Source: Burkholderiales bacterium
GTDB taxonomy: Bacteria > Bacillota > Clostridia > Christensenellales > SZUA-584
Reading direction: 5' to 3'
NCBI GenBank assembly: GCA_050260375.1
Contig: JBLNCA010000037.1
Coordinates: forward strand, 229,527 to 293,526
DNA length: 64,000 nt
The translations under genes were made by a program, and so were the position numbers. The notes under the pieces are model-generated. The model saw only the letters and a list, made by a program, of their open reading frames with translations. It had not been told where the DNA came from and searched no databases. Numbering within the stretch: the first letter of the stretch is position 1; each line of letters starts with the position of its first letter. Shown here one piece after another: positions 18,872 through 42,604 of the stretch.

Positions 18872-19089
18872 GCCGTCACCTCCGTTTTCAGCTTGGTGAT
18901 GAGCATTTCCGGGTCGATGCTTGTCAGCACCCCAAACCAGCCGGAACGGAAGAATTGTTCAATACGGCTGCGCTCATACTGCGCTGAACGGTTGTTGGGA
19001 TTCATAGAAAGAGTACGCAACGCCTTGCGGTAATCCTTGACCGCCTGAAGAATGATGGCGTTAGCCAGGTTATTATAATTGTCAATCAT
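18868..19089 (-). CDS. Conserved phage hypothetical protein
   Basis: YNNLANAIILQAVKDYR...FFRSGWF; start reassigned to ATG 19089. Confidence 0.7.
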   Translation of the reverse strand: MIDNYNNLANAIILQAVKDYRKALRTLSMNPNNRSAQYERSRIEQFFRSGWFGVLTSIDPEMLITKLKTEVTA

Positions 19090-19180
19090 ATGTGACACGC
19101 TCCTAAACTTTATTTTTTGAAGAAGCAGTGTCGCATTGTTAGCATTGTATATGTAAAGCACGGATGCGTTGTTTTCAAAA

Positions 19181-19465
19181 TCATTGCAGGGAGCCGTTAA
19201 TAACAGCTCGCACCTCGTCAACCGAACGGACTACCGAAGCGGTGCCGCCACAGGCGAGGATTTTACGAATAGTTGCCTCTTGCAGTTTTGTTGTTTTGCC
19301 GACCGGTGTTTTTACTTCAAATGCGTAAAACTTGCCATCAATACAGGCAACGATATCCGGGATACCCGCTGTGCCGTATATTCCGCCGTGTTCCTTCCAA
19401 GCGAAGCACTTCGGCACAGTTTTTAAATAGCGAAGGATTTTAGATACGATTTCTTTTTCAGACAC
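19181..19465 (-). CDS. VRR-NUC nuclease
   Basis: GIPDI...AFEVK...LQ motif. Confidence 0.9.
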   Translation of the reverse strand: MSEKEIVSKILRYLKTVPKCFAWKEHGGIYGTAGIPDIVACIDGKFYAFEVKTPVGKTTKLQEATIRKILACGGTASVVRSVDEVRAVINGSLQ

Positions 19466-19475
19466 ATGATCCTCC

Positions 19476-19728
19476 TTGTAACTTATTTGCAGCTTGTAAC
19501 CTCGTAACCTCGAAATATATAGGTGTGCATATATTTACACGCACATACGCGCTCGCGCTATGGAGGTTTTTGCTCTCGCGTGTATACCCATAATTTTAGA
19601 AGTTACAAAGTTACAAAAGGTAAGAGAAATCAAATTGTGCTTGTATATAGCGGTTTTTGGGCGTAACTTTTCTTGTAACTTTTCCTCTTCGGGAAGTTGC
19701 GTTTTGGACTGTGAGGTTACATTTACAT
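19476..19728. repeat. Putative phage replication origin with GTAAC/GTTAC repeats
   Basis: About eight GTAAC/GTTAC copies in both orientations in the non-coding gap after the primase gene. Confidence 0.55.
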
Positions 19729-19731
19729 TGT

Positions 19732-22269: not shown

Positions 22270-22700
22270 ATTGTTTTCACCTCGCAGTCTTCCGTAAAAT
22301 ACCGAATCAGCATATTATGTTTTTGCGCCTTGCGTATTTCGTAGCTCATGCCTTCGGATACGGTATCACCAAAAACCCACAACTCCTGGCATTTTCCGAG
22401 CAGGACACGCCCGAAGAAAAGCCCGAGCTTACGGCTGTCCGGATCGTGCTCATCCATAAACTGCGGGTAGAGCAGATGCGGTGCGAACGGAATTGCATAT
22501 TGCTCTACAGCGAAGCGACAATAGTTTTTTGTGCGCTCGGTGTTTGCTTTTATATCCCCGGCAAATGGTGAACAAATGAATACGAGAGGGCGGTATCCTG
22601 TACCATAGCGGCGCTTTAGCTCATCGTGCAGTACCATGCGCATGGCTTTATATGTCGTTGGGTCGTAATAACCTTCAGAATTATATTTATCTATCCACAT
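22266..22700 (-). CDS. DUF4406/nucleoside deoxyribosyltransferase-like protein
   Basis: VFICSPFAG...PFAPHL...CQELWVFG...SEGMSYEI. Confidence 0.7.
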   Translation of the reverse strand: MWIDKYNSEGYYDPTTYKAMRMVLHDELKRRYGTGYRPLVFICSPFAGDIKANTERTKNYCRFAVEQYAIPFAPHLLYPQFMDEHDPDSRKLGLFFGRVLLGKCQELWVFGDTVSEGMSYEIRKAQKHNMLIRYFTEDCEVKTI

Positions 22701-24628
22701 CACACACCCTCCATTTCAATCAGATCACCAAAATTCGTGCCGTATGCGGCCTCAGCGATGATCGGCACATCGAAATCAGTAAAGGGTTGTTCTTCCATAC
22801 ATGCTTTAACAAAATAGACTGCTTCATCGAGCTTGTCTGCTGGGATTTCAAATACCAGCTCATCGTGAATTTGTAAAAAAGGCTTAAGCCACGGGCGTTC
22901 TTTCAAGCCAGCAGCAATGCGTCCCATTGCCAGCTTGATGATATCGGCGGCAGTGCCTTGAATTGGGGTGTTCATAGCGCAGCGTTCCGCAAAAGAACGC
23001 TTGCTCCAGTCGGTAGAAAGGATGCCGACAATATACCTGCGGCGGCCGAGCCTTGTTTCAGCGAAACAAGTGCTTGCAGCTCGCTTTTTTGTTTCGTCCT
23101 GCCATTCGGTCAAACGCGGATAGCCGTTTTTCAGGTTGTCGATGATCCCTGCACATTGTTCCTTGGTCATATCAAGCCCTGCCTTGAATTTCAGCGTTTT
23201 TTGCAGCCCGCTTGGAAATAGCCCGTAAAACACACCGAAGTTGCAGTTCTTTGCGATAGTACGGCGTTCCTTGTAATGCGGTTCATTCTTATCCGCCGCC
23301 GTTTCGAACGGAATACGGAAAATGACCGAGGTCGTAGCCGCATGAATATCACCGCCGGTTCGATAGGTTTGCAGCATCCTTTCATCACGGCAATAGAAAG
23401 CACCGACGCGTAACTCTATCTGGGAAAAATCTAATGAGACAATCAAGCTGCCCTCAGGTGCTACGATAAAACCTCGCACACCAACCGGGTCGTTATCTTT
23501 ACGCGGGCAGTTCTGTAAGTTCGGGTTACGCGATGCAAAACGCCCTGTCTCTGTACCGAGGGGCATGAGTTCGGGATGGATCCGTCCAGTAGCCGTATTG
23601 ATGTGCGTTAAGTACCCGTCAATGTAGGTGCTTTTGAGTTTGCCCCATTTACGGTATTCCTGTACCAGTTCAAACAGGCGAACAAGCTCCGGACGCTTAT
23701 CTCGGCAGTAGTCGGTGAGCATTATCATTGTTGCATCGTCCGCTGCCTCCTGATGTTTTTCTGTTGTTTTCAATACCGGAAGACCAAGGTCACTGAAGAG
23801 GTACCTCTTGAAAGCTGATGTGGATGCATTTGCTCCTATGTCCACGCCGCCGGTCATCTCGCCGATTTTAGCACGCAGGGCAATGAGTTTTTCCTCGGCT
23901 TCCTTCTGTCTTTTCAGCATTGTCTCCACATCCATAGGAACACCGTTATATTTCATAATGCCGCAATAAACTGCAGTCGGCGATTCGACGCGCTCCACGA
24001 TTTCTCTATGATGGGGCAGATTTTTGGCAAACCAGTTGTTGAATTTGTGATACAACCGCAAGGTGCAGTCACTATCGGCACAAGCATAACGAAGGGTTTC
24101 TTTCTCCGCTGGATCCATCTCATCAAAAAGGCGTCCTGCCGTTACAGTTGCAAAGTCCGGCATATCCGCACCGAATAGTGACGTCGAAAGCAGCTTCAAC
24201 CCGCTGTCCGACAGGTTACGAAACTCAAATTTACTCTTAAGCGTCAGTTGCGCTGCCGCGATGGTATCATAACAAGGCTCGCATACGACGATACCTAATG
24301 CATACAGGAACATCGCCTCGAATGAAAGGTTGTGTGCCACCTTAACCACACTTGGATTTTCAAACAGGGCTTCTCTTAGGTATTCCGCCACACCATCGGA
24401 GTCAATGGCATTAGCTCCAACCTTATGTGAGAGGGGTATGTACACAGCGCTTCCTTCCTTGACCGAAATGCTGATACCAACAATATGTGCCTTGTGTGCG
24501 TCCAGTGCAGCCTTCGGCTCGTCGCGCCATTCATCATCCGGCGCTGTCTCAAAGTCAAATGCAACGACGTCCGCACCGCTGATATAATCGTGTATCTCTT
24601 TATTTGTATAGATAATGTTGTAATCCAT
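22700..24628 (-). CDS. Family A DNA polymerase with 3'-5' exonuclease
   Basis: AFDFET, TGRFAS..PNLQN, DFSQIELR, KNCNFGVFYG, QIHDEL; start reassigned to ATG 24628. Confidence 0.92.
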   Translation of the reverse strand: MDYNIIYTNKEIHDYISGADVVAFDFETAPDDEWRDEPKAALDAHKAHIVGISISVKEGSAVYIPLSHKVGANAIDSDGVAEYLREALFENPSVVKVAHNLSFEAMFLYALGIVVCEPCYDTIAAAQLTLKSKFEFRNLSDSGLKLLSTSLFGADMPDFATVTAGRLFDEMDPAEKETLRYACADSDCTLRLYHKFNNWFAKNLPHHREIVERVESPTAVYCGIMKYNGVPMDVETMLKRQKEAEEKLIALRAKIGEMTGGVDIGANASTSAFKRYLFSDLGLPVLKTTEKHQEAADDATMIMLTDYCRDKRPELVRLFELVQEYRKWGKLKSTYIDGYLTHINTATGRIHPELMPLGTETGRFASRNPNLQNCPRKDNDPVGVRGFIVAPEGSLIVSLDFSQIELRVGAFYCRDERMLQTYRTGGDIHAATTSVIFRIPFETAADKNEPHYKERRTIAKNCNFGVFYGLFPSGLQKTLKFKAGLDMTKEQCAGIIDNLKNGYPRLTEWQDETKKRAASTCFAETRLGRRRYIVGILSTDWSKRSFAERCAMNTPIQGTAADIIKLAMGRIAAGLKERPWLKPFLQIHDELVFEIPADKLDEAVYFVKACMEEQPFTDFDVPIIAEAAYGTNFGDLIEMEGV

Positions 24629-24693
24629 AAATTGCTCCAATCTGCCGCTTGAGGTCGGGTAGTACACGACCACCCGACCTGCGGCTTTATGTT

Positions 24694-25449
24694 TTAGGCG
24701 AGCGGCTCAATAACTTCGCCTGTCTCGGGGTCAATGTTTGCTGCTACATCAACGGAGGATTCGTTGTCGTAGCCGACACGAACGGAGAAAGCTTTGACCT
24801 GTTCGGTAAGTCCTGAAATAAGAGCGAATTCCTCGTCAGTTAAATCGCGGTCGACCGAGAACTGCGCTTGTGAATATGCAATACCGCTGTTGTTGGTAGC
24901 CTTTTTTAGGGTGAATTTAGTGACTACCGAATTAGAATTCTTGCCTTTGGAGAGCAGCCGCATAATGTAGCGAGTAAAGTCCTTAAGCGATCCGGTCGGA
25001 AGGGAGAGGATCATCGGAAAAATCTCGCCCTCCCGGAGCAGATAAATACGGCGGCGGTTTTTACAAGCTTTCGCTCCGTTCTCACCGGATCCGAATTTAT
25101 TAAACGGACACCCCGCGCAATCGCCGCCGGGATTACCTACGCCGGTGATGCCGTCAAAGCTGCCGCAATCAGGGGGATTAGAGCCGCCCGTGTATTTGTC
25201 CGTATAGTAGGCATGCAGCGGGTGGTGATGCAGGATAACTGCCGAAAATTCCTTGACGGTTTCAGGACTGTCGGGATTTTCACCGGGAATTTCAAATACC
25301 GTCATACCTGCGGCAGGAATTTTAATGCGTTCAAAACTGCCGGATAAACCGGAAAGCTCCTCGGTGAGCGCATCGTTTAAGTTAAAATCTTTCAGTGCCA
25401 TAAACGCACTGTTCTTGGTGGTAAGAGCTTTGTTTTCGTTGCTTTTCAT
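24694..25449 (-). CDS. Putative single-stranded DNA-binding/annealing protein
   Basis: Cys cluster (CAGCP, ACKN), acidic tail NIDPETGEVI; position next to the polymerase. Confidence 0.55.
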   Translation of the reverse strand: MKSNENKALTTKNSAFMALKDFNLNDALTEELSGLSGSFERIKIPAAGMTVFEIPGENPDSPETVKEFSAVILHHHPLHAYYTDKYTGGSNPPDCGSFDGITGVGNPGGDCAGCPFNKFGSGENGAKACKNRRRIYLLREGEIFPMILSLPTGSLKDFTRYIMRLLSKGKNSNSVVTKFTLKKATNNSGIAYSQAQFSVDRDLTDEEFALISGLTEQVKAFSVRVGYDNESSVDVAANIDPETGEVIEPLA

Positions 25450-25467
25450 GGTATTTTCATCCTTTCA

Positions 25468-25891
25468 TTATTTGCGGGTCGCTTTGCGGACACCCACAGT
25501 GGTTTTTTCAAATACATTGACCAGGCCATTAAGCCAATCAGGTAATACATCATCGTTTTCTGATATCTGTTCTCTGACAAAAGCCGATAGGCTGTTGGCG
25601 TTGACGGTTTCGTAAATCAACCCGCCATAACCCTCGGCACGAAGTGCTTCGAACAAATCCTCTTTGCGGTCGGCCATCGCTGCTGCACGTGTGGTATTGG
25701 TAAGGCAGAACAAAGTGCCGGAGCGGGTGAAATTCTGCGTCTCGGTATCCGTCATAAGCTGTGCCAGTACAGCGTCGACTTCCTCCAGTTCGGCATTAAT
25801 GTCCTTGAGGCTTTGCTCAATTTCCTTTTTCTCATCGCGCAGGGCTTTAAGCCGTATCTGCGAGTTCAAACATTTTTTCTGAATTGTCCAT
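25468..25891 (-). pseudogene. Coiled-coil replication-module protein with a 1-nt frameshift
   Basis: RBS plus ATG at 25891 (MDNSEKMFELAD) joins RLKALRDEKK only if one base near 25855 is removed; the span is 424 nt. Confidence 0.7.
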
Positions 25892-25908
25892 AGTGAAAAT
25901 CTCCTTCA

Positions 25909-27363
25909 TTAAATAAATGGGTTGTTGCCGTAGCGATAATCATCAACCAGCGTCTTGGCGAGGTTTGCCTTATTCTTCAATGCTTTCAGCACTTTTTCGT
26001 CGACTGTACCCTGCGCGGTGAGATAGATGTAAGTACATGGCATACGCTGACCGGCGCGATGAATGCGGGCTTTGCATTGCTCGAAATTCGACATCGAGTA
26101 ATCCAGAGAATAAAACACCATTGTGCTTGCCGCTGTGAGCGTGATGCCCAATCCCGCAGTCGCCACCTGTCCAACAAATATAGGTACATCGGGGTCATGC
26201 TGAAATCTTGCAACATGCTCGTCGCGGTCTTTTACACCGCCTTTGATGAGTGAATAATTGATGCGTTTTTTCTCAAGCATGGCGCAAATGGCATCCAGTT
26301 CCGGTACAAAGCGGGCGATAATGACGAGCTTGCGGTTCTCCTCCAACGCCGAATCGATGATATCCTCCAGCACGTCCAGTTTTGCTTTACTAACCTGTTC
26401 AGTAGCGCTGCTTTCATCACTGCCAATGAAACCGCCCGTAAGTTGGGACAGACGAAGGAGCTTTGTCAGTACATTTGTGATGGTGACCTCGCCGTCAGAC
26501 AGCTCGGCATAACTTTCTTTGACAAGACTCTGATACAGTTTCATTGCCTTCGGCTCCAGTTCGACTTTGCGGATAATGTCTGTCGTTTCCGGTAGGTCGA
26601 GGCAATCCTTTTTTGTTGCACGAAATGCAACAGAGTGCATGCGGCGAGTAAGTTCATCCTCCATGTTCTTTTTCAAAACGGGTGTGTGATTGCCGTAGCC
26701 GGTCATGAAAAAGAAGCGATTTCTGAAACTGTAAAAACTCTGTCCGAAGATACGTGGGTCGAGAAACTTGTACTGGCTGAATATGTCGATTGCCTTGTTC
26801 GTTACAGGTGTCCCCGTCAATAGCAGTCGGTATTTAGCCACTAATCCTAACCGGTGCATTGCTTTAGAAGCGGCGATATTGTGCGTCTTGATTTTGTGCC
26901 CTTCGTCGGCGATGATAAGGTCAGGCTTCCATGCTGCAAGTTCGCGTTCTAACCGCCATGCCGATTCGTAGTTCACAACGACTATCTGAAGAGGCTGGCC
27001 GGTCATATGCCGGAGAGTATCGAGCTTTTTTTCGCCACTCCCCTTGAGCACAGCGAGCGTGTACTCAAAATCTGCATACGCATCGTGTTCGTCTTTCCAT
27101 ACACCTGTAACTGAAAGTGGTGATACCACCAGCACTCTGCGGATGCGTCCGGCATGATACAAAGCGCCTTCGACTGCTATCGTCGTGAGAGTTTTTCCAG
27201 TACCCATTTCCATGAGCAAGGCGGCTCCGTACCCCACTGGCGAATACGCGCTTCCCTGTAAAAGTCCAAGTTTTTTGCAGATAAAATTGAATGCATTGAT
27301 CTGGTGAGCGTAGGGCTTTACCTTAATTGGCATCGGTAGCAGCGGTGCGTTGTCATTGTTCAT
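25909..27363 (-). CDS. SNF2-family helicase
   Basis: MGTGKT, DEGH, LTGTP, GLGITL, RIHRAGQ. Confidence 0.92.
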   Translation of the reverse strand: MNNDNAPLLPMPIKVKPYAHQINAFNFICKKLGLLQGSAYSPVGYGAALLMEMGTGKTLTTIAVEGALYHAGRIRRVLVVSPLSVTGVWKDEHDAYADFEYTLAVLKGSGEKKLDTLRHMTGQPLQIVVVNYESAWRLERELAAWKPDLIIADEGHKIKTHNIAASKAMHRLGLVAKYRLLLTGTPVTNKAIDIFSQYKFLDPRIFGQSFYSFRNRFFFMTGYGNHTPVLKKNMEDELTRRMHSVAFRATKKDCLDLPETTDIIRKVELEPKAMKLYQSLVKESYAELSDGEVTITNVLTKLLRLSQLTGGFIGSDESSATEQVSKAKLDVLEDIIDSALEENRKLVIIARFVPELDAICAMLEKKRINYSLIKGGVKDRDEHVARFQHDPDVPIFVGQVATAGLGITLTAASTMVFYSLDYSMSNFEQCKARIHRAGQRMPCTYIYLTAQGTVDEKVLKALKNKANLAKTLVDDYRYGNNPFI

Positions 27364-27559
27364 TGACTTCATCACCTCCGCCGGGCAGTTCCGTAATGGA
27401 TACGCACTCGACGCTGTCACCAGGTACGATAACCATCACACGGCGCTTTTCACCGAAGAAATGCCGAAGTAGTCGCTCGCGCATTGATACACGTCGGCAT
27501 CTGACGACACCGCCCTCGGTGGGCTTCTTCGAAACGCTGATTTTCAAATTGTGCTTCAT
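27353..27559 (-). CDS. Small conserved phage protein
   Basis: RBS; MKHNLKISVSKKP...VPGDSVECVSITE; overlaps the helicase start. Confidence 0.7.
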   Translation of the reverse strand: MKHNLKISVSKKPTEGGVVRCRRVSMRERLLRHFFGEKRRVMVIVPGDSVECVSITELPGGGDEVNEQ

Positions 27560-27642
27560 TTCTATCTCCGTCCTTTCCGAGGGACGGTGTAGATGTGTCC
27601 CTCGGTATACGGAGAAAAAGTGGGGGTTTTATACACCCATTT

Positions 27643-28029
27643 CTAAAAATGTTTTTTGAATTTTTTCTTTGCACTTTCGATTGATTTCCACGCAGCGTTT
27701 GGAGCGACGTCTTCGATACGGGCAATCTCATTAACCGACAAGCCATCAGCAAGCATTAACAGTCGCCGTTTCTGTGTTTCCGAAAGCTTGTCCAGCGCAG
27801 TGTTGATCCGAGCGGCGTCTTCTTCGCGTATCAAATCGGTTTCGGGAGTAGTGTCTATCGCATACTCGAGTCCCTCGTAATCGATAGCGTCGAGCGAATA
27901 GCAGTGGTAGCGCTCCTTACGGGCGAGATTGCTCTCCTCGCGTCGTGATGCTGTTATGTAGCTCCCGATTTCCTCGTTGACTTCAACTTCTGCTGTGGTT
28001 CCGTCTGCGAATTTCCATTGAATTCTCAT
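27643..28029 (-). CDS. Sigma-70 region 4 family phage regulator
   Basis: ALDKLSETQKRRL...GLSVNEIARIEDV..AAWKSI; start at ATG 28029 after AAAGGA. Confidence 0.8.
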   Translation of the reverse strand: MRIQWKFADGTTAEVEVNEEIGSYITASRREESNLARKERYHCYSLDAIDYEGLEYAIDTTPETDLIREEDAARINTALDKLSETQKRRLLMLADGLSVNEIARIEDVAPNAAWKSIESAKKKFKKHF

Positions 28030-28033
28030 GCGT

Positions 28034-28223
28034 TGTGTCCTTTCCGCCTGTGTGCGGATGAGGGCGACAAGGACACATAAAAAGCCGGTGCTTCGATGTA
28101 AACCGACCGTTACGCCTGAAATGGGCATGACAAGGCACGGTGGGTACATCCGAGGCTCCGAACACGGCGTTTACCGTGCTTGGAACTTCCTATGTATCCC
28201 GCCGCCTTAATGCGCATCTCAGG
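28034..28223 (-). promoter_or_regulatory. Structured RNA leader: long rod hairpin, terminator-like hairpin, RBS-sequestering hairpin
   Basis: Hand pairing: CCTGAGATG/CATTTCAGG, AAGGC/GCCTT, TACAT/ATGTA, GCACGG/CCGTGT; GTCGGT/ACCGGC plus TTTTT; GTGTCCTT/AAGGACAC. Confidence 0.6.
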
Positions 28224-28295
28224 CTTTGAGATTTATTTTTTCAGCAAAATGTGTTCATTTTTGCAGTTAATGCATTTGCGAAAGCAAATAAACTA

Positions 28296-28324
28296 TTGAC
28301 ATTTGCAAAATTTTGTCATATAAT
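28296..28324 (+). promoter_or_regulatory. Consensus sigma-A promoter for the defence block
   Basis: TTGACA (28296-28301), 17 nt, TATAAT (28319-28324). Confidence 0.85.
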
Positions 28325-28434
28325 ACCTTTAGTTTGTTGCATCGGCTGTTGCAACCAGCTTTGTATTGCATTTTTCTTCAGATATGAATCATTCTGCTGA
28401 CAATATAATTGTATTTGATTTTCTGTTTTTACCA

Positions 28435-28470
28435 CGGAACGCAACGGACTGATTCGGACCGATTCGGACT
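28435..28470. repeat. Four CGGA(A/C)(C/T) direct repeats at 10-bp period
   Basis: CGGAAC-GCAA-CGGACT-GATT-CGGACC-GATT-CGGACT. Confidence 0.8.
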
Positions 28471-28495
28471 ATGGGCAGAGAAAGGAGAGGCGCTT

Positions 28496-29467
28496 GTGAA
28501 GCCGGATGAATATTTCAGAATGATGTATCCCTATATTGGACAAGCAAAGCAGCCAGCAGAGTATCTAGATGACCTACTCTGCAATTTTGTCGTGGATGAT
28601 GCAGACTTCGCCGGAAGCCCTCTGACTGATAAAACTCCAGATTACAAAAATCGCATATATAACGGATCGAAGCCGTTTCCAATATCACTTGCGGCACAGC
28701 TTCTAGACGCAAGTGACCCTATGTGCTTTTCAGCTTATATAAATGACAGCCTTTCTAATGATCTCGCAGAAAATCTTGAAAAGGAGTTAACAGAGCTTGG
28801 CATTGATATCCAAGGCGATGATGTCGCCGATAAATGCGCCAAGCTCTTTGTTTCAATTTTGACGGAAACTGCGAGGCGAACAAAAAGAAAAGACACCCCC
28901 GCCGGTGCTGCTTCATATGGGAAGCAGAAACTAACAGGAGTGCCAATAGCAACTGTATATGTAAGGGACGGAAAAATTTCAATTAACGGGCAGGTGTTTA
29001 ACCTACATAAAAAAATAACTCCGCCCGAAGATATTGCCCAAGAGGAAATGCCATACATTAAGGCGCTATTTGCTGCTTACGCACAAGCTACAGGTATGGC
29101 TTGTGTAACGAAAGATAATTTGTCTACACTTAACGCCAGATATCGCCGTAACTATTCGGATCAGCGTGAAAACTATTATAATGCTGTTCGGGTAGAGCGT
29201 TCAGTGCGTGAAATATTCGAGAATGGTGATGTGGAATTTGGCAAGATAAAGGAAGATGCTTACAACGGTATCATTGATGTATGTTGGAATGATTTTGATG
29301 ACGGTTTTAAACGTCTATTGGCTGTTTTAAATCAGGTGTCACAGATAACGCTAACAAAATCTTTTCTCACGCAAATCAAAGATCTTATCAACAACAGCGA
29401 AAAGAAAGGCATTTGCCATATGCTGGTGAATGACGGGAAAATCCAGTGGGTGTTTGACGATGACTGA
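28496..29467 (+). CDS. Lamassu/ABC-3C effector (LmuA-like) with XRE-HTH-like N-terminus
   Basis: C-terminal EMPYIKAL..QRENYYNA..KKGICHMLVNDGKIQW typical of ABC-3C CTDs; N-terminal TPDYKNRIYNGSKPFP; GTG start after AAAGGAG. Confidence 0.7.
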   Translation: MKPDEYFRMMYPYIGQAKQPAEYLDDLLCNFVVDDADFAGSPLTDKTPDYKNRIYNGSKPFPISLAAQLLDASDPMCFSAYINDSLSNDLAENLEKELTELGIDIQGDDVADKCAKLFVSILTETARRTKRKDTPAGAASYGKQKLTGVPIATVYVRDGKISINGQVFNLHKKITPPEDIAQEEMPYIKALFAAYAQATGMACVTKDNLSTLNARYRRNYSDQRENYYNAVRVERSVREIFENGDVEFGKIKEDAYNGIIDVCWNDFDDGFKRLLAVLNQVSQITLTKSFLTQIKDLINNSEKKGICHMLVNDGKIQWVFDDD

Positions 29468-29903
29468 ACTGTTTAACACCCCGTTCGAAACTTCACTCCG
29501 CGTTCTTCTGACCCTACGCGTATTTGGAGAAGCTATGACGCTGGACAAAATTGCTGCCGCTGATTTTATGACGATTTATGCTCGTGATTTTAGCCTTGCT
29601 GCGTACAACCTGAATGGTGACAACAGCTTAAGTTTTAGTGAAGTAGCGTCAAAGAGAGTGCTTGTTGGCAAGGCAATTAAGCAGCTTGTACTTAATAGGC
29701 TCGTATCAGCAGTACAAAACCGAAGCGGCTTTACATACGAAATAACAGCACAAGGAGCGCATATATGTGACGAGCTGACTTCCGACTATACCGATGAGTA
29801 TATTGTTATGTCTCAAGCGGTTTGCAAGTATATTGAAGGCAAGTCAGAAGTTGAAATTCTCGCAGAAATTAATAAAAGAGCACTTAGCGGAAAGGAGGAG
29901 TGA
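29460..29903 (+). CDS. ABC-3C middle component (LmuC-like)
   Basis: LFNTPFETSLRVLL...DFMTIY...NLNGD; overlaps both neighbours. Confidence 0.75.
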   Translation: MTELFNTPFETSLRVLLTLRVFGEAMTLDKIAAADFMTIYARDFSLAAYNLNGDNSLSFSEVASKRVLVGKAIKQLVLNRLVSAVQNRSGFTYEITAQGAHICDELTSDYTDEYIVMSQAVCKYIEGKSEVEILAEINKRALSGKEE

Positions 29904-31747
29904 ACATGGCAGATTTTTATATAAATAAGCTAATAGTCAAGGGTGCCGGTAAAAAGGATGCTGTTGCAGAGTTTGACAGAGGGCTTACGATTATATCGGG
30001 TCCTTCAAACACAGGAAAAACCACCATCCTTCGTTGTATCGATTATATTTTTGGCAGTGATAATCTTCCGTTTGCGGGTGCCACTGGTTATGATACTATT
30101 ATGCTTTTTGTTAGCACAGAAGATGGCTCGATTCAATTTACACGCAAACTGGAATCAAACAAAATCGATGTAGTTAGTTCTGACGATAGAATCGAAAGTG
30201 GTACTTATAAAGCCAGAAACGCGACGAAAACCATGGAATCTATCAGTAAGGTTTGGCTTGCTTTAATTGGTATAGAGGATGACCATGACATAATTGCCAA
30301 CGAAAATTTTAGACCACAACATCTGACATGGCGCACCTTCCTGCCCGTCATCCTAATAAAGGAACGTCAGATAGAACGAGAGAGTTCTATCCTTATGCCA
30401 GAAGGCGGTGCAAAAAGCATACAGGGGCGCACAGCTTTCCTCTCATCTTTATTGTTTTTGATATACGGAAACGACTTCTCCAATTTTGATGAACGCGAAA
30501 GCAAAAAAGAACGAGCCATACGAAAAGCAGCAGTTGAAAAGTATATCAATAAAGAGCTTTCCGGAGTTGCAGACCGAAAACAAAGTATCCTTGATATGAT
30601 TGGTGCATTTGACGGGTTGGACGTCCAAAAAGAAATTGACAATGCAGTTCAAGCATTATCGGATATCGAAGAAAAAATATCAGCCGCGATGTCAAACAGC
30701 CAGTCGTTACTCAACAACATGCTAGCGAAGAAAGAGCGTTTGACAGAATGCCAAATGCTTATATCACGCTACGCCGCACTAAAAACGCAGTACAGCGCAG
30801 ACATAAAGCGGCTTTCATTTATCGTTGACGGCGAAACCGTTATGAAACATGTGTCGCATGACTCTAACTGCCCGTTTTGTAATGGGAAAATCCCGACACA
30901 GAATACGAAATCTTACATTGAGGCTGCCCGATCCGAGCTTTCAAGGATAGTGGCTCAATATAACGACCTTGTTGGTGCAGAAGATGATATCAAACAACAA
31001 ATACAGGAATTACAGACAGAGATTGTGCTACTGACAGAACAGAAAAGCAGTGTGGAAGAGCTGATAGCAAAAGATCTGCAGCCACAAGCCAGAGCTCTTT
31101 CTGAGACCATTGATGCTTATCGCGTATATATACAGTTAAACTATGAGCTCGATGTAATACACCGCCTCGCTGATGGATGGTATAGCGACCTGCGTGATAT
31201 GCAGAACGAAGATGTATCCGAAATTAAATATAAGCCAATGGACAAGTTTGATGACCGATTTTGGGAAGGGATGGATGCTGCACTAATTGAAATATTGACG
31301 GAGTGCAAGTACACGCCTCTTATCTCAGCGCGATTCTCAAAGAGCTCTTTCGACTTAGAAATTAACGGACAAGCAAAAGCTTTAACGCAAGGTAAAGGTT
31401 ACTGCTCCATTTTAAATACGATTGTGGTCATGGCATTTCGCAAATTCATGTTGGAAAATGCTGTTTACAATCCTGGGCTATGTATCGTTGACACGCCGCT
31501 ACATGGAATTGATGAGGGAACAAAGAATGAAACATCGGAGAGTGTACAAACCGCTTTGTTTCAGTACTTCATCAATAGCCGAGAAATGGGACAGCTGATA
31601 ATCGTGGAAAACGAGCGGACGCTACCTAATCTCGATTATAATCAGAACGGTGTAAGACGAATCATCTTCACAGGCATCGTCGGTGAAGATCAGTGTGGTT
31701 TTTTGCATGATTGCAAATTTGATATACCACAATCCCCAAAAGAGTGA
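29900..31747 (+). CDS. SMC/Rad50-like ABC ATPase (LmuB-like)
   Basis: Walker A GPSNTGKT, coiled coils flanking a CPFC zinc hook, degenerate signature QGKG, Walker B IVDTP. Confidence 0.82.
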   Translation: MNMADFYINKLIVKGAGKKDAVAEFDRGLTIISGPSNTGKTTILRCIDYIFGSDNLPFAGATGYDTIMLFVSTEDGSIQFTRKLESNKIDVVSSDDRIESGTYKARNATKTMESISKVWLALIGIEDDHDIIANENFRPQHLTWRTFLPVILIKERQIERESSILMPEGGAKSIQGRTAFLSSLLFLIYGNDFSNFDERESKKERAIRKAAVEKYINKELSGVADRKQSILDMIGAFDGLDVQKEIDNAVQALSDIEEKISAAMSNSQSLLNNMLAKKERLTECQMLISRYAALKTQYSADIKRLSFIVDGETVMKHVSHDSNCPFCNGKIPTQNTKSYIEAARSELSRIVAQYNDLVGAEDDIKQQIQELQTEIVLLTEQKSSVEELIAKDLQPQARALSETIDAYRVYIQLNYELDVIHRLADGWYSDLRDMQNEDVSEIKYKPMDKFDDRFWEGMDAALIEILTECKYTPLISARFSKSSFDLEINGQAKALTQGKGYCSILNTIVVMAFRKFMLENAVYNPGLCIVDTPLHGIDEGTKNETSESVQTALFQYFINSREMGQLIIVENERTLPNLDYNQNGVRRIIFTGIVGEDQCGFLHDCKFDIPQSPKE

Positions 31748-31761
31748 TATGAGGTGGTATC

Positions 31762-31989
31762 GTGCATTTTAGTTACAATAACTTATGGAAGTTATTAATC
31801 GACAAAAACATGAACAAGCAGGATTTGCGAAAAATAACAGGTATCAGTTCCGCTTCAATTGCCAAGCTGGGCAAAGGCGAGAATGTAAATACCGAAGTGC
31901 TCCTGCGTATATGTAAGGCACTAAATTGTGATATATCTGATATTATGGAATTCGTCCCAGGTTCGTGTGATGATTTCGGCAAAGAGTGA
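31762..31989 (+). CDS. Cro/C1-type HTH regulator
   Basis: SYNNLWKLLID...ISSASIAKLGKGENV...LNCDISDIME. Confidence 0.9.
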   Translation: MHFSYNNLWKLLIDKNMNKQDLRKITGISSASIAKLGKGENVNTEVLLRICKALNCDISDIMEFVPGSCDDFGKE

Positions 31990-32064
31990 GATAAAAATTA
32001 CTGAGCATATCATCAATTGATTAATGTTGGTACATTTTTGGGTGAATAAAGAAGGGGTTTAGCT

Positions 32065-33681
32065 ATGGCAACTGATCATAATATAAAATTACATAGTGCT
32101 GATATATCGACCAGCTGTCTTATCAATGCGGTTAGAGTTTCTTTTGGCACATGGTTGTCAGGTAATAAGAGCAAGCATGAAACAGCACTTATTCTATCAT
32201 CGCTTGATAGTGCCTCTGAGCAGATGTTAAAGCGAAAGATAATAGATTGTTCACTGTGGGAAATAACAAACCCCGCTGTTTTCATTGAGGTCTATAATAA
32301 GGCACGTGACAACAAGTTATTTAGAGTAATGGATAAGAAATGCTATTTATCGTTTATGCGGGATGGGCGAGTGTTTTTAAAGTTCCTCAAATCAAAGCCA
32401 GCTATACAGATTGATAATGCTTCGAAAAATATATCACCTTTGGACGAACAGCAAACTACACCTTTGACCATCAAAGATGCAGTGGTAACGGTGCTTACAG
32501 AATCATCCCAGGCATTAACCGCTAATGAAATATATGACGAGATAGTAAAACGTTGCTTATATACATTTGGGGCGCAAAACCCTGTTAACGTTGTTCGAAA
32601 TATTATCGAGAGCGCTTGTGATAATTCTACATACTCTGAACAAAATAGAGCATCTGTGCCATACTTTCACTTTGAAGTAAATGAGGCTGGTAAAAGAGTT
32701 TATTGTCTATTAAATGATATACAAAAATACCACCAGCAACCTGTCAATACAAACGTTTACTCCTCATCTCTCAGCAACATCGTTGATCTTGAAGAAGGAA
32801 AAGCTGGCATAAGAGAAATTCTTGAAGCCCACTTTCAGACGCTTTACGGGTACAGTAATATCAGTATTCTATGGAATGCAGCTCAGGATACTCTACCACT
32901 GTTTCTAAATGATAATGCTATTAATACTGCTGATCAACTATGGCGCCTTACATACAATGCTTTTGAAAATGAATATGTAATGAGTTATCCTCACATATGG
33001 AAAGCGCAGCCAAATTATCCACAGAGCTATGTAGGTGTTATCATCAACCTTGCTAGACAGTTAGGTGGAACCGTTACCAGAGAACAAATTGATGATTATT
33101 TCACACGTATTAAACAAAGGTCGCCTATCAACGCGACGGTTATACGTCAGGGATTATTGATGTTCTACGCTTCTAAACATTTCATACTAACAGAGATTGT
33201 TGAATTGACAAATGAGCGTTGTGCCGCAATAACAAAGTCATTGAACAAGCTCTTTGCGTGCGAAAATGTGTCTTACATTGTATTACGGGACATAGCCTCT
33301 AAATGGTTTTCATCATTACCAACAATAAAGGGTGGTTTGAGTTGGACAGCATTACTGTTACAAGAAACCTTAAGATTGAGACCCGGAATTGGCTATAGGG
33401 TAATATTTTCCGGTCTTGATGGACAAGCGCTTGATACACTCGGGGCCGCAATTGTTCCAAACGAATCGGATATCAGCTGTTTTGCGGATTTGGTGCATCG
33501 ATATTGTCAAGAGAGAAAAATATTGGGCAAGAAAATGGCTACAGAAGAACTTAGAACACTTTTACGTGACGTAGGTATGCTCGAAGGTAATGAACTAATT
33601 TATAACCTTCATAAAGCATTAAAAGACTACCGTTTTGCTTTCACAGACGAAAACAGAATGGTTAAGATATTGGAGAGATAA
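32065..33681 (+). CDS. Hypothetical protein with central HARE-HTH-like winged helix
   Basis: TIKDAVVTVLTESSQALTANEIYDEIVKRCLYTFGAQNPVNVV; 5 nt upstream of the PAPS reductase gene. Confidence 0.6.
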   Translation: MATDHNIKLHSADISTSCLINAVRVSFGTWLSGNKSKHETALILSSLDSASEQMLKRKIIDCSLWEITNPAVFIEVYNKARDNKLFRVMDKKCYLSFMRDGRVFLKFLKSKPAIQIDNASKNISPLDEQQTTPLTIKDAVVTVLTESSQALTANEIYDEIVKRCLYTFGAQNPVNVVRNIIESACDNSTYSEQNRASVPYFHFEVNEAGKRVYCLLNDIQKYHQQPVNTNVYSSSLSNIVDLEEGKAGIREILEAHFQTLYGYSNISILWNAAQDTLPLFLNDNAINTADQLWRLTYNAFENEYVMSYPHIWKAQPNYPQSYVGVIINLARQLGGTVTREQIDDYFTRIKQRSPINATVIRQGLLMFYASKHFILTEIVELTNERCAAITKSLNKLFACENVSYIVLRDIASKWFSSLPTIKGGLSWTALLLQETLRLRPGIGYRVIFSGLDGQALDTLGAAIVPNESDISCFADLVHRYCQERKILGKKMATEELRTLLRDVGMLEGNELIYNLHKALKDYRFAFTDENRMVKILER

Positions 33682-33686
33682 AAAGA

Positions 33687-36014
33687 ATGTATGGTTATCA
33701 ATGGACTGATAAAAATGGAATATATCGCCTTGTGCCTAACGCCAAGGTTATCAAAGAAATTCGACCCGTTTTTAGGGAGGAACTTGACTACTTTGGTTTT
33801 AATAATTACTGGAATTATCCAAAGACTGATGCTCCACTCCTTTGGGCGGAAGGGATCCGACGGTATGTTGTTAACGGAGAAGTAGTTGCCGAGGCCGTCG
33901 GTGGAGGGTTTTATACAAAGCCAACTATAAATGTAAAAAAAGAGAGATTAACACTTAAAGCAATAAACATTGAACACTTATGGAAAGAAAATGAAAGCCT
34001 CATGAGAGGGCTTGAAGATAAAGCGATTGAGTTTATACGCCAAATTCATGATGAATATGCCGCCAAAGGAATGAAGTTTGTTGTTGCTTTCTCTGGAGGT
34101 AAGGATAGTCTCGTTTTACTCGACCTTGTTGCCAAGGCCCTGAGACCTGACGAATTTGTTGTTATTTTCAGTAATACTGGAATGGAGTTTAGTGCAACGA
34201 TCGACGCAGTAAAGAGAGCAAAGGAAAACTGGAGTAAGCTTCGTTTTTATGAAGCAGAGAGCCACATGTTACCGGAAACAACATGGGACGCTTTTGGTCC
34301 CCCAGGTCGAAGAATGCGGTGGTGCTGTTCAGTTCATAAATCAGTACCAACAATGCTAAAACTACGGGAAATTACTGGCGATTACGATGCTAAAGCAGTA
34401 GTCTTTGAAGGGGTGCGTTCGGAAGAGAGTTTTGCTAGATCTGAATATGAAACAGTCCGGGAAGGCGTAAAGAATATCAATCAGGTAAATGTCAGCCCTA
34501 TACTCACTTGGGGAACAGCAGAGATTTATCTCTACTTGCTCAAAAACAAGATATTGCTTAACGATGCATATAAAGAAGGCTTTAATCGTGTAGGCTGTTC
34601 AGTGTGTCCTATGTCGTCTCCTTGGCGCGATCACCTAAGTTATGGATTCCATAAAGATGAAATTCAGCCACTTCTCAATGTGGTTGAAGATTATGTTGAA
34701 AGAGTCAAACCGGCCAAGAGTACCCAAAAGTATATTGAGAACGGCGGCTGGCGTGCAAGGATGGGGGGCCGTGGATTAAAAAACGGCGGCAATCGTGTCA
34801 CCGAAGTAATAGATGGCGATAAGATAATTTTTAGATTTACAAAGAGAACGGGTAACTGGTTAGATGTTGCAAAAATACTAGGAGAAATAGTTGAGAAAAA
34901 TGGTAATTCTTATACTCAGATTATTTCTCATCAAACATATACCTTTACGTTGGCAGGTGAAACGGTTACATATTCTCCATATACTCAAATGGACAGATTT
35001 GTTATTAGTAAACTGCGTGGCGTCGCATATAAAGTGGCGTACTGTATAGGTTGTAAAGCTTGTGTCGTGCAATGCCCCACAGGAGCATTTGAAATAACAG
35101 AAGAAAATAAAATCCTAATTCGTGAGGAATTATGTACTCATTGTGGCAATTGCATCAGTTTTACTGGTGGAAAAGGATGCCTTGTCGCAAAATCTTTATC
35201 GACTACGGAGGGAAATAATATGCAATTGAAAGGCATGAACAGATATCAAACATTCGGTTTCCGCCGTCCATGGCTAGAACATTTCTTTGAGCATGGTACG
35301 GACTGCTTTACACAGGGGCAGCTTGGAAACAGACAATATGATGCACTGCGTGTTTGGTTGCGCGAGGCAGAACTTCTTGAACCTTCAAACAAGGGAGATA
35401 AATCTGGAACGATGACCGAGTTATGCAATAAGCTCGTTGCACTTGGAGCTGGCAATCCAATGGTCTGGGCTGTGATTTGGACAAATCTTGCCTATAACTC
35501 TGTTATCACAAAGTGGTATATGTTGTACACGCAAAGTGGCGAGACTTATGATAAGGCCGAACTTGTATTCATGCTTGGCGACGACTACTCTCCATCTACA
35601 CGTGATAATGCGGTGACTGCTTTACTCGAAACTTTCCGCCACTCGCCAATTGGTACCGCACTCAAACAGGGTATTCCGATTCCTGATGGCGCAAGTTATA
35701 AGTTCGTGAAGCAAGGTTGGGATGCCCCAGAAGCCGCAGCAATTCTCTATGCGCTCTATAAGTTTGCTGAGGAAACAGGGCGATACACATTCACCTTAAC
35801 TCAACTTGATAACGCTCGCGGTAATGCTGAGGCTAAGGGTGTAGACCCTGTAGCTATTTTCGGTTTAAATCCGAAAAATTTCAAAGCCATTGTGCAGGAC
35901 ATTGCGCTACAATATCCTGAGTTCATCCGTGTGGCATTTGTCCAAGACCTCGATAACATTATGCTTGTACCCGAAAAGAAAGCCATCGATGTGCTCGACA
36001 TTATCACAGAGTAA
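33687..36014 (+). CDS. brxP: BrxP-like PAPS reductase fused to 2x[4Fe-4S] ferredoxin and a DUF4007-like domain
   Basis: AFSGGKDS, RWCC, RVGCSVCP; CIGCKACVVQCP and CTHCGNC; YQTFGFRRPWL...WLREAELL C-terminal domain. Confidence 0.8.
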   Translation: MYGYQWTDKNGIYRLVPNAKVIKEIRPVFREELDYFGFNNYWNYPKTDAPLLWAEGIRRYVVNGEVVAEAVGGGFYTKPTINVKKERLTLKAINIEHLWKENESLMRGLEDKAIEFIRQIHDEYAAKGMKFVVAFSGGKDSLVLLDLVAKALRPDEFVVIFSNTGMEFSATIDAVKRAKENWSKLRFYEAESHMLPETTWDAFGPPGRRMRWCCSVHKSVPTMLKLREITGDYDAKAVVFEGVRSEESFARSEYETVREGVKNINQVNVSPILTWGTAEIYLYLLKNKILLNDAYKEGFNRVGCSVCPMSSPWRDHLSYGFHKDEIQPLLNVVEDYVERVKPAKSTQKYIENGGWRARMGGRGLKNGGNRVTEVIDGDKIIFRFTKRTGNWLDVAKILGEIVEKNGNSYTQIISHQTYTFTLAGETVTYSPYTQMDRFVISKLRGVAYKVAYCIGCKACVVQCPTGAFEITEENKILIREELCTHCGNCISFTGGKGCLVAKSLSTTEGNNMQLKGMNRYQTFGFRRPWLEHFFEHGTDCFTQGQLGNRQYDALRVWLREAELLEPSNKGDKSGTMTELCNKLVALGAGNPMVWAVIWTNLAYNSVITKWYMLYTQSGETYDKAELVFMLGDDYSPSTRDNAVTALLETFRHSPIGTALKQGIPIPDGASYKFVKQGWDAPEAAAILYALYKFAEETGRYTFTLTQLDNARGNAEAKGVDPVAIFGLNPKNFKAIVQDIALQYPEFIRVAFVQDLDNIMLVPEKKAIDVLDIITE

Positions 36015-36027
36015 AGGAGATAGAGGT

Positions 36028-39000
36028 ATGAAGTACAGTAATTACATTGAATTGTCTGCAAACTACGAGTCTGTTGTTGATTTGGATGCAGAAAAACGCA
36101 ACCCGAATCTGTGGCAAGAGTACATAGTCCACGATGATATGAAAAATGCTATCGACGCAATTTGTCAAACTATGTTATGGGAGGATAATGACAAGCGTCG
36201 TTCCTTTTGGATTCATGGAGCGTACGGTACAGGCAAGAGCTATGCAGCTATAGTGCTCAAGCATCTTTTTGAGGATAGTATTACTAATATCGAACCCTTT
36301 TTGAGTCGCCCTTCTCTTGCTGAATACAAAAAGCGTTTTTTAAAGATTCGCGAGAAAGGTGAATTTCTGGTCGTTTGGAAAAGCGGAGCAACTGACATCA
36401 AAAGCGGCACTCATCTTATGATGGAGATGGAGGTTAAGATAAAGGAAAAACTTAAAGAAAAGTTTGGCGAAAAGGCATATTATGGAACAAGCTCGCTTAT
36501 AAACGCAGCAAAGGATGCCATTAACGACAAGAGTATCAACTGGACATATCTATTTACGGATATTCAATACGGCCTTTCTGACCAATATTCCGATTTTGAT
36601 GAGTTCCAACAAGCGGTTTTGGACGGTGATTCTGATGCTATCCATCTTGTCAAGCGCATCTGTGACGATAATAAGCGCACCATGTTCACAGGTGTTGTAG
36701 ATAGGTTTGAAGAATGGATAAAAGACATCATTGCCGGCAATAAACTTTCTGATACAGGTATCGTATTCATATGGGATGAATTTACCGGATTTTTAAGGGA
36801 TTGCGGAGATGACAATGTACTGCAACGGCTTTCCGAATTGTGCAAATCTGTGGATAAAGATGGCAAGGCGAAACCTAATGCACCGTTCTTTATGTGTCTT
36901 ATAGTTCACCGTGACCCTACTTGGGTATCAGAACTTGGTGACGAAACCTATGAGAGAATCTTGCATCGCTACCATGAATTAAAATTCCATATTACCGAGA
37001 GCGCTGCATACGATTTAATTGGCGATTCGATTATTCCTCGTCCAGGCATGGAAACCCAATGGGAAGAAGTAAAAAAGGATTTGATGAAATCCATTGAAAA
37101 TTATAAGATTGAGTTTGATAATCTTGATCAGAGTATAAATATCAATGAGCGGCTTGCGAAACTATGTCCAATTCACCCTATGACACTTGCAATGCTTGCC
37201 ACCGTAGCAGAACACTTTGGTGCTTCCCAGAGAACATTATTTCGGTTTATGAAAGACGAGGCAAAATCCTCAAAAGGCGTTGGATTTATCCACTATATAG
37301 AAAATAATGAACCAAATAAATGGCAATGGTTAACTGTTGATTATCTTTGGGATTATTTCTTTACTATAGAGTCCGACTCACGCGATAAAGATGTAAAGAC
37401 ATTTACCCCAGAAACATTAAAAGCTATACATCATTTTCAGAATAAGGCTGATTCGATTTCTGATGAATATGCGCTCCATGTCTTTAAGGCAGCATTGCTT
37501 TTAATTGCCGTAATGAGCGGTAGCAATATTAGTAATTTATATAGCAAACAAAATCGCCCGAGCAGAAAAATCGGTGCAACAAGAAATACTCTTTATAAGT
37601 GTTTTCGTGGCCAATTAGACCAGGCGACTATTGATGAATATCTTACTTCTTTTAAGGAAATCGGATTGCTTAGTATTGGAGAAATGCTTAACGGCGACGC
37701 TCGCTTAGAATTGCCCTATACAGGGAGCACAGACACATTCGATGTTAGGCTCGAGATGACCAAGAAAAAATATACGCGATATGCACTCTTCGCTACGAAG
37801 GGAATCTTTTCAAAAATAATAGAAAATGGAATGTGGGATCCTACAAGAGCTACTGCAGGGCGTGTGTACATCGCGGCTTGTTCGTCGGAAACCAATTCTC
37901 TATCTGCGCGTCTTGGGGAAGTTAAAAAGGAACTTCAAAACCACCCATATAAAATTGGTATACTTGTTGTTACTGTTTCCGAAGCGAGGGAGTATACCAG
38001 CTTTCAAGCAAAGATAAAGCAATTATCTTTGGAAGACGATAGCAAGCGTCTTGTTATCGCAATGCTTCGTGAGCCATGCACAGCAGATTTGCTGGATCGT
38101 TGGCATAAAGCTATTACGCATAAAGAACTCTGCGCGGAAGAAGGCAAGTCAGGTGATGCAAGCAAATATGAAACAGAGGCGAACATGATTGTTGCCACAT
38201 GGGCAGGTCCCGCATTAGATTCTCAGATCTATGCTTGCTATGGTGATATTCAATTCACAGGGGTTTATGGGAAGAGCGATTTGATGAAGCGGATAGAAAA
38301 AGATGTGATTTATACAGTTTTTCCGGCTGCTCCTGAGCGTCTTGTGACGGTTAACACAGCATATAGAAAGTGTACTGATAAAGTTGTCTTGGCTGGTCTG
38401 ACTAAGGAAGTGACCAATGCGCAGGTTAATAATATTGTAAATGCTTTAAAGGCTATTGGAGCATGGGAAATTAATGACTTGGGTGGCCTGATAAGCCTGA
38501 GCGGTACAAACGCAGAGGTTATTTCTACCCTCGCTTCATATTTTCAGCAGGAATTTTCTCAAGGCGCGAAAATCTCGCTTGATTTACTTTGGGCGAAGTT
38601 ACAGCAACCACCCTTCGGATATTACAACTCGATGACTGTTGGGTGCTTTATTGGACTTGTCATGCGTTCCCTCGTTAATGGCTCATTTAACTGGTTTGAT
38701 GGCGTAAACACCCTGCCGCCAACAGCGGGTAATCTGGCGAGTATGGTCAGTAAGATGCTTGACGGAAAAACCATTAATCATAACCTCTCATCTGGCTCTG
38801 CTATTTGGCAAAAATTCAAGCAATATATTCAAAAATTATTTGGCCTTTCAGCTCAGGAGGTTGTTAGCGATGCAGAGGCACGAAAATTTATTAAGCAGAC
38901 AATTACTAGAACTGGCGTTCCGTTTTGGGCAATAAAATATTTGCCTAGTGATAAATTTGGTGGCGATGAGTTTAAGTCGATAGTTATTCGAATAACAGAT

Positions 39001-40263: not shown

Positions 40264-40275
40264 GAGGGCGTTGCG

Positions 40276-42393: not shown

Positions 42394-42593
42394 TGAGAGG
42401 GAAAAAGATATGCACTGAGTGCAATAAAATTTTGAATAAGGATGAAGTAGCGCTTACACAGAAAATGCTCGGAAAAGATATAAACGAGTTATACTGTATT
42501 GACTGCCTCGCAGAATATATTGATTGTGATCGCAGTGATTTGGAAATAAAAATTGAAGAATTCAAGGAACAAGGTTGTGCTTTGTTTCTTTAG
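42393..42593 (+). CDS. 66-aa Cys-rich putative zinc-binding protein
   Basis: CTEC...CIDC...GCALF; TAATG coupling to pglZ. Confidence 0.75.
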   Translation: MRGKKICTECNKILNKDEVALTQKMLGKDINELYCIDCLAEYIDCDRSDLEIKIEEFKEQGCALFL

Positions 42594-42604
42594 GAGGATA
42601 GCCA

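Follow-up and report, generated by a model that had tools for sequence, protein, structure and literature searches.

A prophage-borne Lamassu/ABC-3C cassette with an uncharacterised LmuA N-terminal domain in a Christensenellales genome

Prophage defence genes that are cotranscribed with the immunity region are known from phage lambda, where rexAB are transcribed with cI, and from the defence hotspots of P2- and P4-like elements. Firmicutes phages and integrative and conjugative elements carry the ImmR/ImmA pair, which consists of an XRE repressor and an M78 metalloprotease. Members of the Lamassu family have been found in prophage hotspots (Millman et al., 10.1101/2022.05.11.491447), and in a Salmonella Lamassu system LmuB2-LmuC sequesters the oligomerisation domain of LmuA until activation liberates LmuA, which then forms a tetramer (10.1101/2025.03.14.643221). 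In this work we examined a stretch of 64,000 nt, referred to below as the window, from a genome deposited as Burkholderiales bacterium and assigned by GTDB to the Christensenellales (assembly GCA_050260375.1, contig JBLNCA010000037.1, positions 229,527 to 293,526). An original prediction had proposed that a Lamassu/ABC-3C system with a helix-turn-helix (HTH)-type effector sits in the prophage repressor position at 28296..31747, and had offered two functions for it: a RecA-independent lysis/lysogeny switch or, alternatively, an abortive system with an uncharacterised DNA-binding toxin. Our analysis indicates that the locus is probably a prophage-borne Lamassu anti-phage or anti-plasmid cassette, carried as cargo that protects the lysogen and equipped with an uncharacterised, probably non-enzymatic output domain.

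The cassette consists of three plus-strand genes in the order A-C-B, with overlaps of 38 nt between lmuA and lmuC and of 4 nt between lmuC and lmuB. The 323-aa LmuA matched PADLOC PDLC03857 (4.9e-98, profile positions 5-326 of 327) and, with residues 184-318, the full profile of Pfam CTD6 (2.2e-40, positions 1-130). Its N-terminal domain (residues 1-130, 28496..28885, plus strand) is followed by a basic disordered linker, short beta-hairpins and the ABC-3C CTD6 docking/oligomerisation domain (28886..29467, plus strand). LmuC (29430..29903, plus strand) is the ABC-3C middle component MC2 (Pfam MC2 1.6e-39, residues 14-152 on profile positions 1-140 of 145; PADLOC LmuC 3.3e-52). LmuB (29900..31747, plus strand) is a short SMC/Rad50-like ABC ATPase, matched by PADLOC PDLC03867 (1.2e-220, residues 3-605 on profile positions 1-603 of 605) and at its N-terminus by Pfam AAA_23 and SMC_N; in its translation the N-terminal Walker A reads GPSNTGKT, a long central region follows, and a C-terminal CIVDTP stands at the expected place of Walker B. 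The most likely start of lmuA is GTG at 28496, which agrees with the register of the PADLOC profile and is preceded, six bases before, by the ribosome-binding site AAGGAGAG at 28482-28489; position 28296, where the original prediction had begun the module, is the -35 box of the operon promoter. We concluded that lmuACB is, as predicted, a Lamassu/ABC-3C triad in which an LmuA-like gene is coupled to lmuC and lmuB, and that it belongs to a diverged subfamily characterised by LmuA-CTD6, LmuC-MC2 and a short LmuB; a split of Lamassu into sub-families has been described (10.1101/2025.03.14.643221).

The triad shares with described Lamassu/ABC-3C systems the three components, the gene order, the overlaps, the Pfam CTD6 and MC2 families and full-length PADLOC models for LmuA, LmuC and LmuB. 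It differs at the LmuA N-terminus, which is none of the types listed for the family (Cap4, PD-(D/E)xK, Mrr, Sir2, hydrolase, protease or monooxygenase) but an acidic helical domain without known family or fold. The LmuA subtype itself is already catalogued, since the PADLOC LmuA model covers the whole protein including the N-terminal domain, and it may already be named in the Lamassu subtype lists of Millman et al.

The operon lies inside a prophage of ~42.4 kb, a size obtained by comparison with four other lysogens or viral contigs. All prophage genes in the left 28 kb of the window are on the minus strand, in the order tail, head, terminase, DNA methylases, primase, PolA, SNF2 helicase and a sigma-70 region-4-like first early gene, and the prophage extends beyond the window to the left with tail genes, holin, amidase and two large serine recombinases. 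It is a temperate siphovirus-like phage that uses large serine recombinases for integration. The left end is L002:9496 (L002 is a locus reaching left of the window), 26 nt beyond the stop of the serine recombinase gene rec1, and this end was re-found in genomes G059 and G061, the latter being the genome of locus L024. A profile search of genome contigs with the LmuA alignment returned 56 loci, two of which, L023 and L024, encode an identical LmuA (100% at the amino acid level) and are collinear with the window: L023 covers window positions 18495-31958 at 97.3% identity, L024 covers 18572-31971, and the similarity ends there. The IMG/VR contig of L088, at 42,525 bp consistent with a ~42.4-kb prophage, ends at window position 31962, and L091, a more distant phage (~80% identity), has the same operon and its end at 31958. 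These four place the right prophage end at ~31958, with an attR crossover region at 31955..31962, where the common sequence of the lysogens stops at ...GAATTCGTCCC. In a three-way alignment the break falls within the last codons of an HTH gene located downstream of lmuB; the flank right of it is unrelated in L023, and L024 differs after 13 nt more. The 100%-identical LmuA was found within the same phage in metagenome-assembled genomes labelled Anaerovoracaceae and Clostridia.

Because the right prophage end lies past lmuB, Lamassu is phage cargo; the operon is inside the prophage, and the BREX-like island on its right belongs to the host. The fall in G+C from 0.48 to 0.41 at ~28 kb in the window marks the border of the cargo and not the end of the phage, because the BREX type 4-like genes from 32065 lie outside the prophage. 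One junction, in G059 (L002:12125 joined to window position 28135), was considered as an empty attachment site that would place Lamassu outside the phage. This was rejected because L023, L024, L088 and L091 hold phage and Lamassu as one block to ~31958; G059 carries an internal-deletion remnant instead, since the junction cuts the recombinase gene rec2 at a domain border and lmuA is frameshifted. The remnant of the same prophage (L016, G059:C3, 9648-14322) retains rec1, a 143-aa ORF and the C-terminal third of rec2; the rec2 remainder runs straight into window position 28135 and the Lamassu operon, in which lmuA is split into three ORFs, and ~38 kb of phage genes are gone. An empty site was also sought in genomes of the same genus, where the result was uninformative: synteny of G003 and G005 ends at L002:~2614-2636 and picks up on contig C49 of the source genome (G000).

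Within the prophage, lmuACB and the small HTH gene that follows form the sole rightward operon, and lmuA is the first gene divergent from the phage early operon, in agreement with the original prediction. The 466-nt intergenic region between lmuA and the first early gene contains a promoter for the lmu operon, TTGACA-17-TATAAT (28296..28324, plus strand), that matches the sigma-70 consensus at 12 of 12 positions and is kept in all Lamassu-bearing copies including L091 (~80% identical overall). Judged by its boxes, this promoter is strong and constitutive-looking, and it would cotranscribe Lamassu and the HTH gene. It is overlapped by a promoter-like site, ATGACA-16-AATAGT (28292..28319, minus strand, 9/12 consensus match), which may serve the leftward early operon. 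A palindrome read from the sequence just 5' of the -35 box, ATTTGC-N4-GCAAAT (28273..28288), is retained in L091 with one change, and related TTTGC/GCAAA elements are found around the overlapping promoters at 28244-28264 and 28302-28309; these palindromes are candidate operators. The first early gene (27643..28029, minus strand) encodes a 128-aa sigma-70 region-4-like protein (Pfam Sigma70_r4_2 7.1e-06), and the phrog_11138 alignment begins at residue 41 of the longer sigma-like ORF. Its 266-nt leader folds at -102.8 kcal/mol (z = -6.85) and includes a conserved long imperfect hairpin of ~112 nt (28114..28224, minus strand), nearly invariant between phages with only 80% identity elsewhere and also present in phages with another divergent module. 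The hairpin gave no match in Rfam, and an Rfam search of 27400-32300 yielded only a chance snoRNA-like row; the hairpin may serve as an attenuator, as a site of processing or as an element resembling an origin.

Among IMG/VR loci, ten have a gene for the sigma-like early protein. Lamassu is present as here in three of them (L087, L088 and L091). Five others (L084, L085, L090, L092 and L093) diverge at or just past the early gene and have other content, with at least 900 nt of different sequence, and in the remaining two (L086 and L089) the upstream sequence is too short to judge. An XRE gene paired with an M78 gene (ImmR/ImmA-like) is located less than ~2 kb upstream of the early operon in three of the five, divergently in L090 and L093 and co-directionally in L092. 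The slot of L090 holds XRE (135 aa), M78 peptidase, Dam, HerA/NurA-like genes and a type III methylase; that of L093, XRE (152 aa), M78 and HsdM; that of L092, HTH_3, an M78-like gene and type I R and M genes; that of L085, a 131-aa unknown gene, an Ig-like gene, HTH_17 and HsdM; and that of L084, unknown genes. L061, a Desulfosporosinus phage relative (SNF2 68% and PolA 61% identical), carries a CTD6/MC2 Lamassu in the same slot, and the N-terminus of its LmuA is not matched by the hidden Markov model (HMM) of the N-terminal domain studied here. We concluded that the slot is a cargo hotspot, because related phages put XRE and M78 pairs, restriction-modification genes or another Lamassu there. 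By its gene arrangement, the position appears to be the one expected for defence cargo expressed in the lysogen.

Megablast of window positions 20000-32000 against deposited phages gave no match, and homologues were found at the protein level. The LmuA homologue of Streptococcus phage Javan630 (MK448997.1) is 32.6% identical over query residues 5-323 and that of Christensenellales phage NatCom_6392 (PV036419.1) 27.5% identical over query residues 1-319, and both homologues cover the N-terminal domain. LmuC and LmuB follow LmuA in both phages; the cassette stands at the end of the genome, in divergent orientation to the early genes, the phage backbones differ, and the gene annotations do not go beyond hypothetical protein or ATPase. 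As in the lambda rexAB and P2/P4 type, the defence genes of the present prophage are in an operon divergent to the lytic genes and beside a small HTH regulator, and the slot is interchangeable among related phages. The differences are that the defence genes come first and the HTH gene last, that the HTH protein has 75 aa without a sensor or cleavage domain, and that attP is in the 3' end of its gene. The ImmR/ImmA type occupies the equivalent region in L090, L093 and L092; here the M78 protease and a 120-150 aa XRE protein are absent from the phage, and nothing connects LmuA with the inactivation of a repressor.

The N-terminal domain of LmuA was examined by profile searches and structure prediction. 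The original prediction had pointed to the motif TPDYKNRIYNGSKPFP as being like the XRE recognition helix. The motif is present at residues 46-61 (window 28631-28678) and is the best-conserved block of the family; R53, N56 and G57 are conserved in at least 90% of 22 sequences, and G57 is almost invariant among 86. The AlphaFold2 model of residues 1-137, built on the 86-row alignment, reached pLDDT 91 and pTM 0.83 and consists of seven helices (3-14, 20-31, 48-56, 63-72, 75-85, 88-100 and 110-130). The RIYNG block forms helix 48-56 and the loop after it, with a 16-residue coil between helices 20-31 and 48-56. For this model Foldseek found nothing in the PDB at E<=0.001 (globins and further helical bundles appeared at E>0.6), and the highest Z in VIA-align, run against 48,161 chains, was 3.6, to HhH-GPD glycosylases and carrier proteins, which is under the level that the tool regards as meaningful for helical proteins. 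In BFVD, three uncharacterised gut-virome proteins share the fold (TM 0.84, 0.81 and 0.68) and no annotated match stood above noise. The whole-LmuA model (pLDDT 67.9) likewise had no PDB match at E<=0.001 by Foldseek, and residues 1-135 had no usable match in the ESM Atlas. Pfam at E<=10 found no family on five diverse N-terminal domains, including nuclease, protease, TIR, Sir2, hydrolase and HTH families; the earlier statement that the N-terminal 137 aa lack nuclease, protease and TIR motifs agrees with this. Compared with L091, the domain has 36 synonymous and 19 non-synonymous codon differences (219 and 95, respectively, in lmuB), and it is under purifying selection in the phage.

An explanation that we regard as unlikely, although it survives better than the others discussed below, is that the domain is a highly derived HTH-like DNA-binding module, so that released and oligomerised LmuA would bind DNA as a non-enzymatic toxin or regulator. 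The RIYNG-loop-helix segment (residues 48-72) shows local similarity to the stretch of XRE proteins from helix 3 through the loop to helix 4; HTH proteins and repressors occur among non-significant fold rows (BFVD ranks 13, 16, 25, 26 and 42, all at E>1; the Stl N-terminal domain in the PDB at Z 3.0); and STAND NTPases often have N-terminal DNA-binding domains. However, the pLDDT-91 model does not have the helix and tight turn ahead of the putative recognition helix, and when 22 LmuA sequences were compared with 11 XRE proteins by hhalign, the highest probability was 2.3%, for a match in CTD6 and outside the domain. The net charge of the domain is -9 (median -5 and range -13 to +4 among 86 homologues), and the domain also heads proteins that already bear effectors (TIR, HamA nuclease). 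An HTH identity is thus not supported, and fold and profile comparison do not bear out the likeness of the motif to a recognition helix. As to the alternative of an abortive system with a DNA-binding toxin, abortive action by an uncharacterised effector is close to the present interpretation; DNA binding is not indicated.

A phmmer search with LmuA residues 1-180 against 1.84 billion representatives detected 102 proteins at E<=0.001, 16 of them at 1e-10. We scanned 58 of the 102 with Pfam; short fragments and some mid-sized proteins made up the rest. The partner domains were CTD6 in 17 proteins, CTD11 in 10, STAND NTPase modules in eight (NACHT, NB-ARC or nSTAND, with TPR or WD40), and TIR plus VWA, HamA and FHA in one each; 19 had no Pfam family and one was a low-complexity repeat protein, probably spurious. 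The domain is N-terminal in all scanned proteins except the repeat protein. Since it heads STAND NTPases, HamA, TIR-VWA and CTD11-type LmuA proteins, we take it to be a general immune module and not a phage repressor; its distribution appears to be that of a general immune output or adaptor module.

Such an arrangement on NTPase- or sensor-coupled proteins (STAND, CTD6- and CTD11-type LmuA) as well as on effector-bearing ones (TIR+VWA, HamA) could also mean that the domain is an effector-associated adaptor with EAD/Death-like logic, which recruits by homotypic contact a separate protein carrying the same domain fused to the real effector. Effector-associated domains are known to recruit partners by homotypic contact. 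The source genome has one copy of the domain, however (1 match at E<=10 among 19,896 six-frame ORFs), and the domain occurs in only 6 of 401 genomes of the class, the source genome included; the 5 others, out of 400 searched, have one match apiece. Single-copy occurrence speaks against a homotypic adaptor pair. Pfam EAD families were not matched at E<=10, which is weak evidence, since few matches above about 0.1 pass the filters of HMMER. We consider the adaptor idea improbable, slightly more so than the derived HTH module.

The last gene of the phage (31762..31989, plus strand) begins 14 nt past lmuB in the same operon and encodes a 75-aa Cro/C1-type HTH protein (Pfam HTH_26 8.3e-23; NCBIfam VanU 3.4e-25, below the cut-off of that model). 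As attR lies within the 3' end of the gene, the last ~9 codons come from the host. The original prediction had seen no classical CI in the window; it stands in so far as no Peptidase_S24 was found in the prophage ORFs scanned with Pfam or PHROGs, and it had missed this gene, whose product is the sole Cro/CI-type HTH protein among those ORFs. Homologues 58-72% identical directly follow lmuB in five other loci (L028, L038, L039, L040 and L069), and in phage NatCom_6392 lmuB is likewise followed directly by one (62% identical). Of the LmuA proteins encoded in the five loci, three are without the N-terminal domain, so the HTH gene is tied to the cassette or the phage family and not to that domain. 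It overlaps the start of the next gene in L040 (a methyltransferase) and L069 (HsdM). The same is often true of VanU-like 66-77 aa HTH_26 genes that lead varied cargo, namely methyltransferase, HsdM, DUF4238 and unknown genes (L040 12761-13857; L069 3586-4504 and 8690-10028; L039 12720-13815), and the gene order suggests a controller-protein role for VanU-like HTH_26 genes in stacked defence cassettes. The 75-aa protein could be a phage repressor, a cassette regulator or an orphan controller. It is more likely than LmuA to bind DNA as a regulator, either in the switch region or for neighbouring cargo.

These results bear on the proposal that Lamassu is a RecA-independent lysis/lysogeny switch coupling the sensing of DNA ends to prophage control, which we now regard as very improbable. 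Three observations agree with it: the slot holds an XRE and M78 pair divergently in two related phages and co-directionally in a third, no ImmA-type protease or S24 repressor was found in the scanned ORFs of this phage lineage, and the lmu promoter overlaps the early promoter. Against it, the operon contains a separate Cro/CI-type HTH gene, and the LmuA N-terminal domain is not detectably DNA-binding by model, fold, charge or profile comparison. The domain is also found on defence proteins that are not tied to phages (8 STAND NTPases, 1 HamA and 1 TIR+VWA protein among the 58 scanned), it is single-copy in the six positive genomes, and the slot in related phages holds restriction-modification genes, HerA/NurA or a Lamassu with another N-terminus. 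Equally far-fetched is a composite scheme in which the domain is a new non-enzymatic immune output module shared by Lamassu (CTD6, CTD11), Avs-like STAND NTPases, Hachiman HamA and TIR-VWA proteins and acting by clustering-dependent sequestration of a nucleic-acid-binding partner, Lamassu has replaced ImmR/ImmA here, and LmuA released on DNA-end sensing titrates the small HTH regulator and tips the prophage to induction.

The reading as lysogen-protecting Lamassu cargo is thus the one we prefer. What was observed are the families of the genes and their genomic setting; activation and output would proceed as follows. By analogy with solved Lamassu systems, an LmuB dimer and LmuC would sequester the CTD6 domain of LmuA in the lysogen, and LmuA would be released when an invading replicon presents DNA ends or replication intermediates. 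Free LmuA would then, by the same analogy, oligomerise through its C-terminal domain, and oligomerisation would cluster the acidic helical N-terminal domain as the output. Our guess is that this output is probably non-enzymatic and that it binds or sequesters a cellular partner and aborts the infection.

Several points weigh against this reading. LmuA and LmuB gave 0 matches by sequence to solved Lamassu structures, so the mechanistic analogy crosses subfamilies. No enzymatic or otherwise known effector domain was found in LmuA, and the alignment of the family lacks any pattern of invariant acidic, histidine or cysteine residues suggestive of catalysis; the output step is conjecture. Beyond the 75-aa HTH protein, no recognisable maintenance repressor or ImmA-type anti-repressor was found in the prophage. 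The Lamassu proteins of the HTH-bearing loci are only 27-46% identical, as against 58-72% for the HTH proteins, which is odd for an immunity repressor.

Several features of the surroundings were also recorded. The left prophage end (L002 9522-13071) carries tandem large serine recombinases of 522 and 520 aa (CcrB/XisF-like) with a 143-aa recombinase-domain fragment between them, and attL is located 26 nt beyond the stop codon of the outer recombinase gene. The variable region between a conserved asparaginase gene and the prophage contains a group II intron reverse transcriptase/maturase gene (L002 3459-4757). The prophage has a DNA-modification/anti-restriction set (window 12866-17305 and 22266-22703) of two ParB-N-terminal/N6-N4 DNA methyltransferases, SAM synthetase, an amidoligase-like protein and a nucleoside 2-deoxyribosyltransferase. 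A related phage on a contig of only 3.4 kb (L017, G035:C377) is without the SNF2 helicase segment (window 25472-27363) and keeps the sigma-like gene and lmuA. Directly beyond attR is the BREX type 4-like island (window 32065-45196), which encodes a 538-aa unknown protein (weak HARE-HTH), BrxP (PAPS reductase and 4Fe-4S, PADLOC 5.6e-237), BrxC, a 705-aa protein (DUF7863, weak PglZ matches), BrxL and a class-V aminotransferase/cysteine desulfurase.

The locus provides a clean, boundary-mapped case of a temperate gut-Firmicutes phage that carries Lamassu as probably lysogen-expressed cargo, in a slot that related phages fill with different defence. The wider interest is in the N-terminal domain of LmuA, which combines a confident fold and purifying selection with the lack of a known family and heads several unrelated immune chassis. 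Knowing its function would give several defence families a further type of effector or adaptor at the same time.

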